A program made the position numbers and the translations under genes. DNA of 7,530 nucleotides from Candidatus Vampirococcus lugosii (GTDB taxonomy: Bacteria; Patescibacteriota; Gracilibacteria; Absconditabacterales; Absconditicoccaceae): assembly GCF_018420025.1 (NCBI RefSeq), contig NZ_JAEDAM010000078.1, positions 1 to 7,530 on the forward strand, written 5' to 3'. Position 1 is the stretch's first letter. Every line of letters starts with the position of its first letter. The notes under the pieces were generated by a model. The model worked only from the letters and a program-made list of their open reading frames with translations, was not told the origin of the DNA and made no database searches. Of this stretch, positions 1-7,530 are shown one piece after another.

Positions 1-1
1 T

Positions 2-589
2 AATATCTATGAATTCATATCTGAATACATAGATATTAATTGAAAACCAGTAGCTGTTTATCTTGATCGTCATTCTGCATACAAAATCAATCATCCAAAA
101 GATCAATTTGATAAAGAAATGCTTAGCAGATTACAAGTTGCTTGTAATATATTATGAATTGAAGTTATTTATTCTAAGTGTCCTGAATGAAAATGAAGAG
201 TTGAAAATTCATTTAAAACACATCAAGACAGACTTATAAAAGAGATGAGACTTGCTTGAATTAAAAACATTGTTTCTGCTAATAAATTCTTATATGATTA
301 CTACATACCTAAACATAATAATAAGTTCTCTGTTGAAGCTAAAGTGTCTTGAAACTTCCATGTTCCTATCACTAAATATGAAAAAGAAAATCTTGAATGG
401 TTCTTTGCTAAAAAAGAGAAAAGAATTATTAAAAGAGATTGAACTGTTAATTACATGAATACAAAATATCAAATACATAAAAAACAATATTTACCTGCTT
501 GAAAGCAAGTAAATGTTGTTACATCTATGTTGGGGAAACTTAAAATATTTTCTTGAAATGTAGAATTATTATTTGATATTATTAATTAA
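2..589 (+). CDS. rve/DDE transposase, C-terminal fragment (5' end outside window); table 25
   Basis: With TGA=Gly it reads NIYEFISEYIDINGKPVAVYLDRHSAYKINHPKDQFDKEMLSRLQVACNILGIEVIYSKCPEGKGRVENSFKTHQDRLIKEMRLAGIKN...LFDIIN*. The LDRHS and KGRVEN motifs are the second Asp and the Glu of an integrase-core DDE triad. Stop TAA at 587..589. Confidence 0.85.
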
Positions 590-601
590 TTATTTATATT
601 A

Positions 602-650
602 TTACTGACATTTCTATTTTTGTTTTTTTACTGACATTTTAAAGTTGCTG
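602..650. repeat. IS right terminal inverted repeat (IRR) containing two TTACTGACATTT direct repeats
   Basis: TTACTGACATTT occurs at 602..613 and 628..639. The reverse complement of 606..650 aligns with 3326..3369, with shared blocks CAGCAAAGTT/AAAGTTGCTG, TGTCAGTA and AAATAGAAATGTCA. Confidence 0.6.
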
Positions 651-718
651 TTACAAGATTTATTTTGGGTGAATTTGTCAAATTTTTGGGAGTGAAGAAG
701 TTTATTTTGGACAAATCA

Positions 719-1597
719 TTACAAAATAATATCTTTCATATATCAATTTTTCTCTAAAACTTTTTTTAATTCAGCTCTATTAGCTAAATTAAATCATACT
801 TGGCTCCAAATTTTATGTTTTTCTTCTATTTGATTTTGTATTTTATTAAAAATTTTAACAAAATTTATTGAAATTTGCTCAAAACTTAATCACTCTCTTT
901 TACTATCTATATAATTTTTTTCAAAACAATCTACCAAATTGATACTTTTTCAGTCAACTGAAATATTAAGTAGTTGTTGTCTAGTATTTGCATATTTTAT
1001 GTTTTCTCATTGTCTTATACCATCCCAAAAACTATCTCTAACAATTACGGGTGCTATTATTTCTTTTAGATAATCATGTCAAACATCTGATAATTCTCAT
1101 ATTTTACTATAAACATTTTTAATTTGTTTTTCTCGTATAATATGACAATATTCATGCAAAAATATGTCTAAATAATTATTTTCTTGATTTTTGAATACTT
1201 CAGTTACAATAGAAAACTTTATAATATCACTACCAAATGTAGAACTTGGTAAAAAACTTGGATATATATGGACAGTCTCGTTATTTATTTGGTAGTCCAT
1301 AGTTTTACAAAAACCCTCCACGATTTTTTGTTTGTTTCAATTAAACAATTTTTTCCATTTTTTAATTATATCATCTATCTTGTATTTATATTCAAAATAT
1401 TTTTGTTCCAAAAAGTTATCAACTAATTTTTCTCATTCTGCTTGAGATATATTCTCTATATTAGCCAAACTATAATAACAAAAAAATATTGATTTACGAA
1501 CATGTCATCGTTTGTGGATATGTTTTTTTTCAAAGAGAAATTTTTTGAAAGATATTTTATCTTTTTCTACATCGCATTTTATTTTAAAATTTAGCAT
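719..1597 (-). CDS. 292-aa hypothetical protein with an HExxH motif (putative Zn-metallopeptidase, candidate leader peptidase); table 25
   Basis: Open only with TGA=Gly (10 in-frame TGA codons). ATG at 1597 lies 9 nt after the upstream TAATAA stop; stop TAA at 719..721. Sequence MLNFKIKCDVEKDKISFKKF...NYLDIFLHEYCHIIREKQIKNVYSKIGELSDVGHDYLKEII...KNGYMKDIIL. HEYCH is at 1142..1156. I do not recognise the family, so the function rests on the motif and context only. Confidence 0.7.
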
Positions 1598-1606
1598 GAG
1601 TATTTA

Positions 1607-2989
1607 TTATAATATTTCAATTATCTTTTTTTTATAAAGCATAAATAAAAATTTATTTAATTTTTTTTCATCAATTCAGATCTCTGAAGAAAGTTCAGAT
1701 AAAGAAAAATAATCTTTTTTTAACAATCTTTTTAACAAATATCATGAATCTCTAGTTACCATAGTATTAGCATATCACAAAGACAGAATATATCAATCAT
1801 TTTCTTCTCTGAAAATAATATTAGGTGATACTCTTAACTTTTCTCAAAGAAGAGAAGTAACCTTAATTTTATTTTGTTCCAACAATAGATGTATTTTTTT
1901 TCTATTAACTGGTTTTGCATAAGGATCCATTTGATTTATTTCTCATGTTGTTCACTTTGCTTCCATTCTACATCATCATGTACATTTTGATAAATATTCA
2001 CAAGACACACATGTTTCTGGAATCAAATCTCAATTTCTCCATTCCTGCATATTTTGCCATATTTCATCTAAATTTTTTTGAAATATATTTCAATAAGACA
2101 TGTCAGCATGAGTACATGGTCTAACTTCTCAGTCTGCTCATATTATTGAGGATGTTATTCAAGCAGTACACTTATGTCTAGAAAATTCTGCAAACTCAGG
2201 TATCTCTGACAATAAACACAAAGGATAACATTCTAATATGTCTACATACAATCATTGTTCTTTTTTTAGTCTTACTAAATCAGAAAGACTCAAAATAACA
2301 TCATCCTTATCAACAGCATAATCCATAAAGTTTGGTATGTTTGCTGGCCAAGATCATTTTGTAGCGAAAAAACTTTTAACTCATAGTTCTTTCAAAAAAT
2401 TACCTGTTTCATAAACATGGTCAATATTTAATTTTGTTAGGACCATATTAACTCAAATTTTAATATCCTCATCTAAAGCCGTTTTTATTCAAGAAATAAC
2501 TTTATTAAAATTTCATTCTTTTCAAGTAATTTGATCATGAACTTTTGAATCATAAGAAGTTAATGATGTTAAAATAGACCTCAATCATTTACTTTTTAGC
2601 TCTTGTGCTAATTTTTTTGTTAATAACATAACATTTGAGTTTAAACTGCAGGAGATTCAATGTTCAGAAAGTTGTTCTATTAAGAACAGAACGACATCTT
2701 TTTTGATTAGTGGTTCTCATCAAGTTATTCAAACATGGAAAACTCATGCTTTTTTCAATTGCTCAATAATAATTTTTGCTTTTTCAATATCAAGATGAAT
2801 ATGATTTCTATCAGTAATTTGCCAAGAATTGTAGCAATGTATACAGCTAACATTACAACTACTAGTTACTTCTATCTGCATACTTAATGGTGCAGATAGT
2901 TGTCTAGCAAAGTTTCATTTTAATGAATTTACCTTATTTGATTTTTCTCAGTTGCTACATATTTCATTACAATTATCACATCTATTCAT
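1607..2989 (-). CDS. Radical SAM/SPASM-domain peptide maturase (460 aa) with a C-terminal PqqD-like (RRE-type) domain; table 25
   Basis: Open only with TGA=Gly (29 in-frame TGA codons). MNRCDNCNEICSNGEKS...MQIEVTSSCNVSCIHCYN gives CX3CX2C at 2834..2857. VGITGGEPLIKK gives GGEPL at 2708..2722, with both Gly encoded by TGA. The SPASM signature is CTAGITSSIIGADGEVRPC (CX12GX4C) plus CVSCEYLSKCTGGC (CX2CX5CX3C, 1970..2011). The C-terminal ~80 aa read LRVSPNIIFREENDGYILSLGYANTMVTRDSGYLLKRLLKKDYFSLSELSSEIGIDEKKLNKFLFMLYKKKIIEIL. Stop is TAATAA. Confidence 0.93.
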
Positions 2990-3033
2990 GTTAATGTAAT
3001 ATATATTTAGATAAATACTGCATTGTGTTTAAA

Positions 3034-3060
3034 TCTCCAGCCAGACATTCTGACTGGAGA
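3034..3060 (-). terminator. Stem-loop between precursor and maturase genes (candidate attenuator or partial intrinsic terminator)
   Basis: Minus-strand RNA UCUCCAGUCAG-AAUGU-CUGGCUGGAGA forms an 11-bp stem (one G-U pair) with a 5-nt loop. Only a short UUU follows. It starts 9 nt after the precursor stop and ends 44 nt before the maturase ATG. Confidence 0.5.
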
Positions 3061-3069
3061 TGTTGAAGT

Positions 3070-3207
3070 TTATGAATCGCATGGTGTATTGTCGCAATCA
3101 CATGCATCACACAAATCGCAATTATCACAGTAATCACAACTGTCACATGATTCTGCAACAACATCACCATCACCAAACAAACTAACAAAACCGAGATCCA
3201 GACTCAT
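3070..3207 (-). CDS. 45-aa Cys/Asp-repeat RiPP precursor peptide (8 Cys, each followed by Asp)
   Basis: MSLDLGFVSLFGDGDVVAESCDSCDYCDNCDLCDACDCDNTPCDS*. ATG at 3207 lies 5 nt after a perfect AAGGAGG. It sits directly upstream of, and on the same strand as, the rSAM/SPASM gene. Stop TAA at 3070..3072. It contains no TGA codon, so it is visible in the standard-code track as the 3' part of ORF 3070..3297. Confidence 0.8.
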   Translation of the reverse strand: MSLDLGFVSLFGDGDVVAESCDSCDYCDNCDLCDACDCDNTPCDS

Positions 3208-3212
3208 AAATA

Positions 3213-3219
3213 CCTCCTT
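3213..3219 (-). promoter_or_regulatory. Shine-Dalgarno site AAGGAGG for the precursor peptide
   Basis: Plus-strand CCTCCTT is AAGGAGG on the minus strand, with a 5-nt spacer (TATTT) to the ATG at 3207. Confidence 0.65.
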
Positions 3220-3276
3220 TTTTTTATAAAGAATTAATGTTACAATAATTACAACCATTGCAACTACTGTAATATT

Positions 3277-3304
3277 CTTATAAAGATCTTTTTTCAAAAA
3301 TCAA
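3277..3304 (-). promoter_or_regulatory. Candidate sigma70-like promoter for the cassette (TTGATT-16 nt-TATAAG)
   Basis: The minus strand reads TTGATT (3304..3299), 16 nt, then TATAAG (3282..3277), about 70 nt upstream of the precursor ATG and about 22 nt from the IS end. In DNA this AT-rich, such matches arise easily by chance. Confidence 0.2.
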
Positions 3305-3325
3305 CACTTTTTGGCTCTATTGTGC

Positions 3326-3371
3326 CAGCAAAGTTAAATTGTCAGTACTAGGCACAAATAGAAATGTCAAT
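3326..3371. repeat. IS left terminal inverted repeat (IRL)
   Basis: CAGCAAAGTTAAATTGTCAGTACTAGGCACAAATAGAAATGTCAAT. The two (A)AAT(T)GTCA(G/A)T motifs at 3336..3347 and 3362..3371 mirror the two TTACTGACATTT repeats of the IRR. Confidence 0.6.
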
Positions 3372-3407
3372 ATAATAATATTGTTTTATTTTTTAAAAAA
3401 CAATATT

Positions 3408-4551
3408 ATGAATTTACTTTATACTGACAAACAAATGAACAAAGTCCGTATTATCCAAAAACTTATCGATAATAAGATAAACATCAAAGATGTTTGTGAT
3501 GCTTTAAGTTGTTCTGAAAGAACTGTTTATAGATATAAATCTACTCTTATCAATGAATGACCTCCTGGATTCATTCATTGATTAAAATGAAAAGTTTCCA
3601 ATCACAATCCATATTCCTCAAAACATCAAGACTTAGATAGAATAATAACTCAAAATAAGTTTATTTGATTTTGACCCACATTTTTATCTGAAAAGCTTCT
3701 TGAGATCTATTGATTCTATATCAATAAAGAATCTCTTAGAAAAAGAATGATTAGATTGTGATTATGGTTACCAAAACCAAAAAAGACTGTAGTTAAAAGG
3801 AAAAAAAGAGAAAGAAGTAAATCATTTTGATTACTTATTCAAATTGATTGATCTTAATCATGATTGGTTTGAAGATTGATCTGAATATTGTCTCATAAAT
3901 GCTGTTGATGATGCTACCTGAAAAACTACTCATGCTAAATTTACTACTTGAGAGTCCCTTATTAATATCTATGAATTCATATCTGAATACATAGATATTA
4001 ATTGAAAACCAGTAGCTGTTTATCTTGATCGTCATTCTGCATACAAAATCAATCATCCAAAAGATCAATTTGATAAAGAAATGCTTAGCAGATTACAAGT
4101 TGCTTGTAATATATTATGAATTGAAGTTATTTATTCTAAGTGTCCTGAATGAAAATGAAGAGTTGAAAATTCATTTAAAACACATCAAGACAGACTTATA
4201 AAAGAGATGAGACTTGCTTGAATTAAAAACATTGTTTCTGCTAATAAATTCTTATATGATTACTACATACCTAAACATAATAATAAGTTCTCTGTTGAAG
4301 CTAAAGTGTCTTGAAACTTCCATGTTCCTATCACTAAATATGAAAAAGAAAATCTTGAATGGTTCTTTGCTAAAAAAGAGAAAAGAATTATTAAAAGAGA
4401 TTGAACTGTTAATTACATGAATACAAAATATCAAATACATAAAAAACAATATTTACCTGCTTGAAAGCAAGTAAATGTTGTTACATCTATGTTGGGGAAA
4501 CTTAAAATATTTTCTTGAAATGTAGAATTATTATTTGATATTATTAATTAA
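3408..4551 (+). CDS. HTH + rve/DDE transposase (~380 aa) in two frames; needs a +1 shift at 3855 (possible pseudogene or recoding); table 25
   Basis: Frame 1, 3408..3854: MNLLYTDKQMNKVRIIQKLIDNKINIKDVCDALSCSERTVYRYKSTLINEGPPGFIHGLKGKVSNH...FIGFGPTFLSEKLLEIYGFYINKESLRKRMIRLGLW...SFGLLIQIDGS, then TAA. Frame 2, 3856..4551: NHDWFEDGSEYCLINAVDDATGKTTHAKF...YLDRHSAY...CPEGKGRVENSFKTHQDRLIKEMRLAGI...*. There are 21 in-frame TGA=Gly codons. The joined sequence QIDGS|NHDWFED matches the conserved first-Asp region of this transposase type. Confidence 0.85.
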
Positions 4552-4563
4552 TTATTTATATTA

Positions 4564-4612
4564 TTACTGACATTTCTATTTTTGTTTTTTTACTGACATT
4601 TTAAAGTTGCTG
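4564..4612. repeat. IS right terminal inverted repeat (IRR), copy 2 of 602..650
   Basis: Identical to 602..650. TTACTGACATTT occurs at 4564..4575 and 4590..4601, and the repeat ends in AAAGTTGCTG. Confidence 0.6.
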
Positions 4613-4680
4613 TTACAAGATTTATTTTGGGTGAATTTGTCAAATTTTTGGGAGTGAAGAAGTTTATTTTGGACAAATCA

Positions 4681-5559
4681 TTACAAAATAATATCTTTCA
4701 TATATCAATTTTTCTCTAAAACTTTTTTTAATTCAGCTCTATTAGCTAAATTAAATCATACTTGGCTCCAAATTTTATGTTTTTCTTCTATTTGATTTTG
4801 TATTTTATTAAAAATTTTAACAAAATTTATTGAAATTTGCTCAAAACTTAATCACTCTCTTTTACTATCTATATAATTTTTTTCAAAACAATCTACCAAA
4901 TTGATACTTTTTCAGTCAACTGAAATATTAAGTAGTTGTTGTCTAGTATTTGCATATTTTATGTTTTCTCATTGTCTTATACCATCCCAAAAACTATCTC
5001 TAACAATTACGGGTGCTATTATTTCTTTTAGATAATCATGTCAAACATCTGATAATTCTCATATTTTACTATAAACATTTTTAATTTGTTTTTCTCGTAT
5101 AATATGACAATATTCATGCAAAAATATGTCTAAATAATTATTTTCTTGATTTTTGAATACTTCAGTTACAATAGAAAACTTTATAATATCACTACCAAAT
5201 GTAGAACTTGGTAAAAAACTTGGATATATATGGACAGTCTCGTTATTTATTTGGTAGTCCATAGTTTTACAAAAACCCTCCACGATTTTTTGTTTGTTTC
5301 AATTAAACAATTTTTTCCATTTTTTAATTATATCATCTATCTTGTATTTATATTCAAAATATTTTTGTTCCAAAAAGTTATCAACTAATTTTTCTCATTC
5401 TGCTTGAGATATATTCTCTATATTAGCCAAACTATAATAACAAAAAAATATTGATTTACGAACATGTCATCGTTTGTGGATATGTTTTTTTTCAAAGAGA
5501 AATTTTTTGAAAGATATTTTATCTTTTTCTACATCGCATTTTATTTTAAAATTTAGCAT
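4681..5559 (-). CDS. HExxH-motif hypothetical protein, second identical copy
   Basis: Identical to 719..1597 shifted by 3962. Confidence 0.7.
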
Positions 5560-5568
5560 GAGTATTTA

Positions 5569-6951
5569 TTATAATATTTCAATTATCTTTTTTTTATAAA
5601 GCATAAATAAAAATTTATTTAATTTTTTTTCATCAATTCAGATCTCTGAAGAAAGTTCAGATAAAGAAAAATAATCTTTTTTTAACAATCTTTTTAACAA
5701 ATATCATGAATCTCTAGTTACCATAGTATTAGCATATCACAAAGACAGAATATATCAATCATTTTCTTCTCTGAAAATAATATTAGGTGATACTCTTAAC
5801 TTTTCTCAAAGAAGAGAAGTAACCTTAATTTTATTTTGTTCCAACAATAGATGTATTTTTTTTCTATTAACTGGTTTTGCATAAGGATCCATTTGATTTA
5901 TTTCTCATGTTGTTCACTTTGCTTCCATTCTACATCATCATGTACATTTTGATAAATATTCACAAGACACACATGTTTCTGGAATCAAATCTCAATTTCT
6001 CCATTCCTGCATATTTTGCCATATTTCATCTAAATTTTTTTGAAATATATTTCAATAAGACATGTCAGCATGAGTACATGGTCTAACTTCTCAGTCTGCT
6101 CATATTATTGAGGATGTTATTCAAGCAGTACACTTATGTCTAGAAAATTCTGCAAACTCAGGTATCTCTGACAATAAACACAAAGGATAACATTCTAATA
6201 TGTCTACATACAATCATTGTTCTTTTTTTAGTCTTACTAAATCAGAAAGACTCAAAATAACATCATCCTTATCAACAGCATAATCCATAAAGTTTGGTAT
6301 GTTTGCTGGCCAAGATCATTTTGTAGCGAAAAAACTTTTAACTCATAGTTCTTTCAAAAAATTACCTGTTTCATAAACATGGTCAATATTTAATTTTGTT
6401 AGGACCATATTAACTCAAATTTTAATATCCTCATCTAAAGCCGTTTTTATTCAAGAAATAACTTTATTAAAATTTCATTCTTTTCAAGTAATTTGATCAT
6501 GAACTTTTGAATCATAAGAAGTTAATGATGTTAAAATAGACCTCAATCATTTACTTTTTAGCTCTTGTGCTAATTTTTTTGTTAATAACATAACATTTGA
6601 GTTTAAACTGCAGGAGATTCAATGTTCAGAAAGTTGTTCTATTAAGAACAGAACGACATCTTTTTTGATTAGTGGTTCTCATCAAGTTATTCAAACATGG
6701 AAAACTCATGCTTTTTTCAATTGCTCAATAATAATTTTTGCTTTTTCAATATCAAGATGAATATGATTTCTATCAGTAATTTGCCAAGAATTGTAGCAAT
6801 GTATACAGCTAACATTACAACTACTAGTTACTTCTATCTGCATACTTAATGGTGCAGATAGTTGTCTAGCAAAGTTTCATTTTAATGAATTTACCTTATT
6901 TGATTTTTCTCAGTTGCTACATATTTCATTACAATTATCACATCTATTCAT
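5569..6951 (-). CDS. Radical SAM/SPASM peptide maturase with C-terminal PqqD-like domain, second identical copy
   Basis: Identical to 1607..2989 shifted by 3962. Confidence 0.93.
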
Positions 6952-6995
6952 GTTAATGTAATATATATTTAGATAAATACTGCATTGTGTTTAAA

Positions 6996-7022
6996 TCTCC
7001 AGCCAGACATTCTGACTGGAGA
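6996..7022 (-). terminator. Precursor-maturase intergenic stem-loop, second copy
   Basis: Identical to 3034..3060 shifted by 3962. Confidence 0.5.
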
Positions 7023-7031
7023 TGTTGAAGT

Positions 7032-7169
7032 TTATGAATCGCATGGTGTATTGTCGCAATCACATGCATCACACAAATCGCAATTATCACAGTAATCACA
7101 ACTGTCACATGATTCTGCAACAACATCACCATCACCAAACAAACTAACAAAACCGAGATCCAGACTCAT
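7032..7169 (-). CDS. 45-aa Cys/Asp-repeat RiPP precursor peptide, second identical copy
   Basis: Identical to 3070..3207 shifted by 3962. The AAGGAGG site is at 7175..7181. Confidence 0.8.
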   Translation of the reverse strand: MSLDLGFVSLFGDGDVVAESCDSCDYCDNCDLCDACDCDNTPCDS

Positions 7170-7287
7170 AAATACCTCCTTTTTTTTATAAAGAATTAAT
7201 GTTACAATAATTACAACCATTGCAACTACTGTAATATTCTTATAAAGATCTTTTTTCAAAAATCAACACTTTTTGGCTCTATTGTGC

Positions 7288-7530
7288 CAGCAAAGTTAAA
7301 TTGTCAGTACTAGGCACAAATAGAAATGTCAATATAATAATATTGTTTTATTTTTTAAAAAACAATATTATGAATTTACTTTATACTGACAAACAAATGA
7401 ACAAAGTCCGTATTATCCAAAAACTTATCGATAATAAGATAAACATCAAAGATGTTTGTGATGCTTTAAGTTGTTCTGAAAGAACTGTTTATAGATATAA
7501 ATCTACTCTTATCAATGAATGACCTCCTGG
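7288..7530 (+). mobile_element. Left (5') part of a third IS copy, truncated by the window end
   Basis: Identical to 3326..3568 (IRL plus the transposase N-terminus). Confidence 0.7.
7370..7530 (+). CDS. Transposase N-terminal (HTH) fragment; 3' end outside window
   Basis: Identical to 3408..3568: MNLLYTDKQMNKVRIIQKLIDNKINIKDVCDALSCSERTVYRYKSTLINEGPP... Confidence 0.85.

Follow-up and report, generated by a model that had tools for sequence, protein, structure and literature searches.

A candidate radical SAM/SPASM peptide-modification cassette with a Cys-Asp-rich precursor in Candidatus Vampirococcus lugosii and other CPR bacteria

Several described systems pair a small peptide with a radical S-adenosylmethionine (radical SAM) enzyme that carries a SPASM domain. 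The freyrasin system PapA/PapB of Paenibacillus polymyxa, a ranthipeptide pathway, modifies a peptide that has a leader and a core in which many Cys residues are paired with Asp, producing multiple S-Cbeta(Asp) thioethers, six Cys-Asp links in freyrasin itself (PMC8326336). PapB makes thioethers to Glu as well as to Asp, and accepts CXnD spacings with n = 0-6 (PMC9413430). QhpD, which works on QhpC, the gamma-subunit of quinohemoprotein amine dehydrogenase, forms Cys-Asp S-Cbeta and Cys-Glu S-Cgamma thioethers (PMC8326336). SCIFF/CteB-type maturases and the sactipeptide synthases AlbA, SkfB and StsB combine Cys-rich precursors of about 45 aa with a radical SAM/SPASM enzyme and a fused recognition element (RRE), encoded in compact operons. 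The pathways of pyrroloquinoline quinone (PQQ; PqqA/D/E/F) and mycofactocin (MftA/B/C/E) likewise bring together a small peptide, an RRE, a radical SAM/SPASM enzyme and a metallopeptidase. The window analysed here corresponds to a complete contig, 7,530 nt long, from Candidatus Vampirococcus lugosii (Absconditabacteria/SR1), which belongs to the candidate phyla radiation (CPR), and it contains a compact cassette of the same general kind: a Cys-Asp-rich precursor, a radical SAM/SPASM maturase and a protein with an HExxH motif. These three genes very probably form a functional-looking operon that makes a radical-SAM-modified RiPP (a peptide synthesized by ribosomes and modified after translation) of an undescribed family. 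The general logic of such RiPP pathways is already familiar; the precursor family and the peptidase partner family are new, and go together with a predicted C-terminal RRE and a vicinal Cys-Asp motif, and no paper describing this CPR cassette system was found in the literature searched.

The three-gene cassette, its precursor and related loci

Genetic code 25, in which TGA encodes Gly, gives long open reading frames (ORFs) in the window, whereas table 11 leaves the same genes in fragments; the published genome is likewise annotated with table 25 (PMC8080830). Some of the database work used code-4 database versions (P0121, P0122), in which Trp stands at TGA positions. The window is one 3,962-nt unit written 1.9 times, and the cassette occupies 719..3207 on its minus strand. 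It encodes a 45-aa precursor (3070..3207, with ATG at 3207 and the stop reaching 3070), a 460-aa maturase (1607..2989) and a 292-aa HExxH protein (719..1597). A spacer of 80 nt separates precursor and maturase, and the HExxH gene starts 9 nt after the maturase stop. A preliminary description, made from the letters of the window, had placed the cassette at exactly these coordinates, and its account of a precursor, maturase and HExxH protein in a code-25 CPR organism agrees with the gene calls, the domains and the conservation of the trio. Since the trio recurs in dozens of unrelated contigs, the cassette is no chance set of ORFs. That description also noted the lack of a transporter, immunity or regulator gene, and none is present among the genes of the unit; no ABC-transporter signature was found in the unit or in the flanks of 51 related loci.

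The precursor, MSLDLGFVSLFGDGDVVAESCDSCDYCDNCDLCDACDCDNTPCDS, contains 8 Cys and 12 Asp residues and divides into a leader, MSLDLGFVSLFGDGDVVAES, and a core, CDSCDYCDNCDLCDACDCDNTPCDS. The precursor ATG is preceded, at a distance of 4 nt, by an element resembling a Shine-Dalgarno (SD) site, AAGGAGGT (3212..3219, minus strand). No other start codon in the unit has a full SD-like site in front of it, as had been claimed, and the homologue in locus L001 has AAAGGAGGTG at the same place. Translation of the precursor is judged to be strong. Within the spacer between precursor and maturase lies a 13-bp stem-loop (3033..3061, minus strand) with a folding energy of -23.4 kcal/mol and a z-score of -5.4, matched by none of 200 shuffled sequences. 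A stable hairpin of unrelated sequence occupies the same spacer in L001 (4940..4970, z -4.3). Its presence at the same position in both code-25 lineages suggests a conserved attenuator or stabiliser; in the cassette the hairpin is probably an attenuator or transcript stabiliser that would set the ratio of peptide to enzyme.

A 22-nt direct repeat of 91% identity was observed at 1625..1646 and 3217..3238 (minus strand …CTTTATAAAAAAAAG…). One site lies just upstream of the precursor SD and the other just upstream of the HExxH start, within the last codons of the maturase. The repeat may have arisen by chance, the DNA being AT-rich, or may be an expression signal common to both sites.

Related loci were located with a 12-sequence subset of maturases, the first, broader alignment being too diverse. 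At least about 80 full-length maturase homologue clusters exist, at 33-57% identity, and the named homologues come from Patescibacteria, Parcubacteria, WWE3 and Paceibacterota, plus one Omnitrophica entry. The 51 loci examined, which include some near-duplicates from related samples and some truncated contigs, are almost all from CPR/Patescibacteria. A small peptide with the shared leader motif and a Cys/Asp-rich core adjoins the maturase in 36 of the 51 under a strict filter, and an HExxH protein does so in 38. These related loci are the strongest part of the evidence. The statement that natural-product clusters are rarely reported from CPR bacteria has two sides: it holds for the literature searched, while the family itself is common in CPR.

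A second code-25 organism (L001-L004 and L023, GC 0.30) keeps the order of peptide, radical SAM gene and HExxH gene, with a maturase 55% identical to that of V. lugosii; its peptide, MKIGFISIFGEEVTMRVEQCDSCDCDNTSSGGCDSDSGDGCDTAQ, is followed by its own hairpin, the maturase and the HExxH gene. In CPR genomes with the standard code, the peptide lies just downstream of the maturase, for example MEPKVLSMFEPSSSDEESLSSLMLDGKNPCECYGKPCDCDRSGCYTHIPPPSCETK and MLNPRVLSIVSG...CHTCDSCDNTTDGCDCYTQPCDCDETPCDDNSCDKDD. Such loci occur in Patescibacteria, Paceibacterota, Parcubacteria, Saccharibacteria, Yanofskybacteria and Peribacteria. The HExxH partner belongs to the 290-aa family, to a relative of about 240 aa, or, in about 10-11 loci, to an unrelated HExxH...WxxEG type. 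This swap to a different type of metallopeptidase points to a generic proteolytic task, that of a leader peptidase.

Two independent assemblies from other samples, L008 (1841..2881) and L009 (443..1483), are 99.2% identical to window positions 663..1701 only. The shared span covers the HExxH gene and the last 95 nt of the maturase gene, with a gene resembling phenylalanyl-tRNA synthetase upstream instead. L008 and L009 are natural deletion or rearrangement variants, and the peptide and maturase can thus be lost.

Precursors across the family share a hydrophobic leader motif, which reads LSIFE, LSIVE, GFVSLF or VLSIFG (GFVSLF in the window), and their cores contain 25% Asp and 22% Cys, with 4-10 Cys residues each. 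The signature C[DE]CYGxxC[DY]CDx[ST]PCD is common in the family; the window peptide keeps its C-terminal half, CDCDNTPCDS, so that the leader motif and a C-terminal CDCDxTPCD are common to the family precursors and the window peptide. No match was found for nine family precursors against NCBIfam at E<=10, which agrees with the earlier impression that the core belongs to no described precursor family, and exact look-ups of the 45-aa peptide and of the NCBI maturase protein returned no contig on record.

Asp or Glu directly follows a core Cys in 151 of 205 cases (74%), compared with 39% expected when Cys positions are fixed and the remaining residues shuffled (z 11.8); the peptide filter demanded at least two C[DE] units, which biases this figure upward, though not by the observed margin. 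At the +4 offset, which corresponds to the CX3D units of freyrasin, Asp/Glu reach 28% against 34% expected and are not enriched, and +1 is the only enriched offset. The window core itself contains five overlapping CX3D units.

Codon usage sets the precursors apart from their neighbours. In the precursors of all three TGA-recoded lineages, glycine is encoded by GGN only, at 3 of 3 positions in the window (3070..3207, all three GGT), 6 of 6 in L001 (4776..4913) and 4 of 4 in L020 (4757..4903). TGA makes up 51-88% of the Gly codons in the neighbouring genes, and 29 of 30 in the window maturase gene, those of the GGEP motif included. Avoidance of TGA in the precursor may reflect high expression, or selection against a recoded codon in a short, heavily translated ORF.

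No specific curated model covers any of the three families: precursor and peptidase lack Pfam and NCBIfam models, and the maturase matches generic Radical_SAM/SPASM models only. CPR/Patescibacteria account for a large part of bacterial diversity; their genomes are minimal, and they are seldom credited with natural-product pathways. With three genes in about 2.5 kb, the cassette is directly testable by heterologous co-expression.

The maturase, its recognition domain and the HExxH protein

The maturase matches the NCBI entry 'radical SAM/SPASM domain-containing protein [Candidatus Vampirococcus lugosii]' at 100% identity. Pfam identifies Radical_SAM (PF04055, E 2.7e-24) and SPASM (PF13186, E 2.1e-8), together with Fer4_12. 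Alignment of 42 homologues shows that C45, C49 and C52 of the CX3CX2C motif are invariant, as are C258, C274, C292, C327, C330, C336 and C340. By sequence, the seven downstream Cys residues are the pattern of a full SPASM domain, predicted to hold two auxiliary clusters. The nearest solved structures by sequence are SkfB, PqqE and SuiB (E ~1e-14). A defence-system reading was considered and set aside, PADLOC having matched just the generic radical SAM core of viperins at maturase residues 36-191.

Scores against curated hidden Markov models, judged by their cut-offs, served as tests of family membership. None of the 25 best NCBIfam models reaches its cut-off: NirJ2 scores 134 bits (cut-off 500), AhbD 130 (500), PqqE 122 (381), MftC 98 (265), AlbA (NF012164) 74.4 (850), StsB (NF045574) 72.4 (625) and PapB (NF047865) 71.4 (340). 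Neither the SCIFF maturase model nor QhpD is among these 25 best matches. Because every score falls below its cut-off, the maturase belongs to no described radical SAM/SPASM subfamily.

These scores also bear on a reading in which the maturase is a non-peptide enzyme for heme d1, heme b or cofactor maturation and the small ORF beside it is fortuitous. NirJ2 and AhbD head the list, and JGI calls a few homologues 'AdoMet-dependent heme synthase'. Both scores nevertheless fall far under the cut-off of 500, the maturase carries a fused domain with an RRE fold, and Cys/Asp-rich peptides with a common leader adjoin it in most loci. Already contradicted by these data, the reading is scarcely credible; the preliminary description had named a firm placement among non-peptide enzymes, with no conserved peptide neighbour, as the outcome that would count against it, and what was found is a distant best match and a conserved small-peptide neighbour.

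The domain in question comprises residues ~372-460 (1610..1876, minus strand). The family conserves these last 89 residues, and R394 and E396 are invariant. In the AlphaFold (AF2) model of the domain, which has a mean confidence (pLDDT) of 92, three helices come after a strand-rich sheet. Among PDB structures compared by Foldseek, RRE-containing RiPP enzymes and isolated RRE domains rank at the top: LynD, TruD, PbtF with leader, ThcOx, MccB, the lasso-peptide protein TbiB1 with leader, McbB and PqqD (5sxy), all at probabilities of 0.99-1.0 and template-modelling (TM) scores of 0.56-0.69 over 77-86 columns. Profile searches of Pfam and the PDB gave the domain weak winged-helix matches and no PqqD. 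It is accepted as an RRE at the level of the predicted fold, and the earlier proposal that the maturase carries its own PqqD-like recognition domain is upheld at that level, although the domain is invisible to sequence models.

In CteB, SuiB and AlbA, and in SCIFF and sactipeptide maturases, the RRE is N-terminal. The predicted RRE of the V. lugosii maturase is C-terminal to SPASM, a position known from proteusin epimerases (PMC8326336). Together with the Asp-dominated core and the absence of any match to a SCIFF precursor or maturase model, this arrangement distinguishes the cassette from the SCIFF and sactipeptide systems. Compared with freyrasin, the cassette differs in this RRE position, in its CPR hosts, in a family unit of vicinal Cys-Asp/Glu instead of CX3D, and in its novel HExxH partner. 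The Qhp system shares the pairing of Cys with acidic residues, but QhpC is an enzyme subunit and no free peptide, and no Qhp genes are present here.

An N-terminal extension, MNRCDNCNEICSN, forms residues 1-13 of the V. lugosii maturase (2951..2989, minus strand) and is missing in other family members. Its CDNC/CxxCxxxC pattern resembles the precursor core (CDNCDLC). The extension could be due to chance, could provide an extra metal site, or could be a remnant of core-like sequence.

The HExxH protein has no Pfam, NCBIfam or PADLOC family. Among 54 aligned family members, H148, E149, H152, E179 and N204 are invariant, and 3 of the 54 match M48 weakly in Pfam. Of 1.84 billion representative proteins screened with a profile, only 91 are relatives at E<=1e-3, mostly of about 290 aa. 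The HExxH motif and its downstream Glu, the expected third zinc ligand, are a gluzincin-type zinc site as judged by the sequence, a signature invariant in the family that agrees with the zinc-peptidase motif noted before. AlphaFold models the protein with a pLDDT of 95 and a predicted TM score of 0.92. Its PDB neighbours, all weak (best E 0.13, TM ~0.3), are nearly all zinc metallopeptidases and mostly gluzincins, including vibriolysin/LasB (M4), aminopeptidase N/ERAP (M1), M61 and the lanthipeptide leader peptidase EryP. The protein is cytoplasmic-looking, and a putative role as leader peptidase is plausible.

Proposed cross-linking chemistry and its alternatives

In the proposed pathway, the RRE would dock the leader motif of the precursor. 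The radical SAM core would then take hydrogen from acidic residues of the core while the auxiliary clusters deliver Cys thiolates, forming several intramolecular thioethers between Cys sulfur and Asp/Glu side-chain carbons, by ranthipeptide chemistry as in PapB/freyrasin and QhpD. Finally, the HExxH protein would cut off the leader, releasing a small, very acidic and heavily cross-linked peptide. A RiPP cassette with Cys-Asp/Glu cross-linking and leader removal by the HExxH protein is the best explanation overall and a reasonably probable one. The specific Cys-Asp/Glu thioether chemistry, proposed by analogy, is more tentative, standing just short of an even chance. Among reactions that require Cys together with an acidic residue, a thioether to Cbeta(Asp) or Cgamma(Glu) has the best precedent.

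The enrichment at +1 only suggests that the rings are likely vicinal (CX0D/E), or set by a Cys-Asp recognition unit, and not of the CX3D type. The tolerance of PapB for n = 0-6 makes a vicinal link enzymatically feasible.

The same cassette might instead catalyze another reaction, such as sactionine formation (S-Calpha), Cys-Tyr or C-C linkage, epimerisation or oxidative Cys chemistry, with Asp serving recognition or solubility only. The maturase meets the cut-off of no ranthipeptide model, and its AlbA, StsB and PapB scores are about equal; its closest solved relatives, SkfB, PqqE and SuiB, make S-Calpha, C-C and Lys-Trp links; and Tyr follows 13% of core Cys residues, with a conserved C[DE]CYG motif. 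Yet the sole strongly conserved core feature is Cys followed directly by Asp/Glu, and Cys with an acidic residue is precisely the pair used in PapB and QhpD chemistry. A different reaction is thus regarded as rather unlikely, and Cys-Asp/Glu thioether formation is preferred.

A further alternative takes the product to be an intracellular metal-binding peptide or the precursor of a peptide-derived cofactor, comparable to PQQ or mycofactocin. The same combination of small peptide, radical SAM/SPASM enzyme, RRE and peptidase serves those pathways, and PqqE and MftC are among the better curated matches of the maturase. The CxC and CxxC spacings of the Cys- and Asp-rich cores recall metallothioneins, no transporter is present in the unit or in the flanks of the related loci, and the wide spread in tiny genomes suggests a housekeeping-type use. 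Cofactor precursors, however, keep a fixed reactive dipeptide, whereas the cores of this family have none and are variable and multi-site, their length, Cys number and spacing differing widely by lineage. The extra tailoring enzymes of cofactor pathways are absent, and a 99%-identical population (L008/L009) has lost the system. This alternative is accordingly held to be very improbable.

Several points weigh against the explanation by a cross-linked RiPP. The cassette lacks an exporter and an immunity gene. The maturase lies outside the PapB family, its best curated matches are generic or non-peptide (NirJ2, AhbD, PqqE), and the chemistry is drawn from analogy alone. The +1 enrichment carries the filter bias given above, and the 51 loci contain near-duplicates. 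The RRE call comes from a predicted fold with modest Foldseek E-values (0.009-0.1), and PF05402 was not matched by the C-terminal domain in the Pfam sequence search; the fold matches of the HExxH protein are not significant. In L008 and L009, moreover, the peptide and most of the radical SAM gene are missing while the HExxH gene is intact, which indicates either that the system is dispensable or that the HExxH protein has another role.

Should the Cys-Asp units be cross-linked, the product would be the densest thioether peptide scaffold known, and ranthipeptide-type chemistry would be extended to a new ring pattern. In Vampirococcus, an epibiotic predator, the product could bear on action upon hosts. 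A broader proposal is that the cassette founds a CPR-wide RiPP class with a new cross-link pattern (CX0D/E rings or some other link directed by Cys-Asp), packed into ~25 residues at 4-10 sites, a new gluzincin-like peptidase family, precursors that avoid TGA, and a product used by episymbiotic or predatory CPR bacteria on their hosts. As a whole, this proposal is possible but doubtful.

Contig repeat, insertion sequence and variant loci

Comparison of the two ends of the contig reveals an exact repeat: positions 1..3568 equal 3963..7530 at 3568 of 3568 positions, with no mismatches and a period of 3,962 nt. Only 3569..3962, in the middle of the transposase gene of an insertion sequence (IS), occurs once, and the contig both starts and ends inside the IS and its transposase gene. 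A second three-gene cassette is written out at 4681..7169 (minus strand), as the preliminary description observed, but it is part of the exact period and is no independent evidence of a second locus. Because the whole contig repeats at 3,962 nt, its structure is not one of two IS copies bracketing a cargo with a separate second cassette.

Multiple displacement amplification (MDA) over-amplifies small circles. DNA from about ten cells was amplified by MDA and by MALBAC (amplification cycles based on multiple annealing and looping), sequenced as 2x125-nt Illumina reads and assembled with SPAdes 3.6 (PMC8080830). Reads of this length cannot span a repeat of 3,962 nt. A cycle of 3,962 nt in the assembly graph, with one IS and one cassette, accounts best for the apparent duplication. 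It could stand for a 3.96-kb circle, for example one formed when flanking IS copies recombine, for a tandem array, or for an IS-bounded loop left unresolved. When a short-read assembly of amplified DNA shows an exact repeat of several kb, two loci should not be read from it.

The 3,962-nt unit has no match in plasmid, phage and viral-contig collections. A plasmid reading is unsupported, since the unit has no replication gene and no match among the plasmids. Rfam and tRNA scans found nothing, and a scan for promoters and terminators gave no more than chance.

The sole complete IS belongs to the ISNCY family and spans about 1.3 kb (3311..4617, plus strand). Its ends are placed by alignment with the IS of L064 (86% identity) and by the point where the L008 match stops, which lies within a few bases of the IS end and supports that boundary. 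Imperfect terminal inverted repeats start with TGTGCCAGCAA and TGTAACAGCAA and carry a repeated TGTCAGTA. The transposase gene (3408..4551, plus strand) is split into ORF A (3408..3857) and ORF B (3793..4551), and the transposase model NF033594 matches both, at 96.9 and 206.3 bits, covering model positions 2-135 and 136-358. At 3856/3857 an additional A (TCTTAATC, 3853..3859, compared with TCTT-ATC in the L064 IS) creates a TAA stop inside the conserved catalytic QIDGS motif, in which the window copy differs from other ISNCY elements. Programmed frameshifting was rejected in favour of a simple 1-nt insertion because the 86%-identical L064 IS, which lacks the base, is in frame. The extra base falls in the unduplicated stretch, and the split reflects either a pseudogene or an error of amplification or sequencing. 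Once repaired, the transposase has 380 aa and aligns end to end with intact 380-aa homologues, which are plentiful in recoded CPR-like contigs, including contigs of about 1.3 kb in similar samples.

The preliminary description had called the cassette the cargo between two IS copies and therefore mobile. If at least two IS and two cassettes were real, in a composite transposon or a tandem array, and the cassette were actively mobile, this would agree with an IS that borders the cassette on either side in the contig and has recognisable terminal inverted repeats, with L008 homology that stops near the IS end as expected for an insertion, and with the abundance of related IS as short contigs. Such a structure would also have to explain zero differences over 3,568 nt, in an assembly whose reads cannot span the repeat and whose DNA was amplified by methods that favour small circles, and a contig whose start and end both lie within the IS. 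The one complete transposase gene is frameshifted, the sequence past the IS on the peptide side is not a continuation of the L008 flank, and no target-site duplication is apparent by eye, the flanks TTGGCTCTAT and AGATTTATTT sharing no direct repeat. The pattern expected of a composite transposon, two verified IS copies with unique outer flanks, was not seen in this contig, which has no outer flank. The closest homologous cassettes, those of the second code-25 organism (L001-L004 and L023), lie in an ordinary chromosomal neighbourhood with no IS nearby. The composite structure is therefore considered unlikely, and a single IS and cassette in an assembly cycle is the favoured reading. The claim of mobility does not stand in the form given, though mobility of the cassette is possible.

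In the standard-code locus L060 (QZGF01000006.1, 2501..3798), the maturase homologue is broken by frameshifts or stops while the precursor and HExxH-type genes look intact; this homologue may be a decaying copy. In the Patescibacteria loci L005-L007 (~2250..3654 and 7454..11173), a second, different radical SAM gene of 364-386 aa stands beside the family locus. It is followed by a 71-aa Trp/Asp/Pro-rich ORF (…RGWDYDWSDKGSDPPPWSDWPDKTE), and genes resembling ThiF and nitroreductase are present too. These extra genes may represent another peptide-modification cluster.

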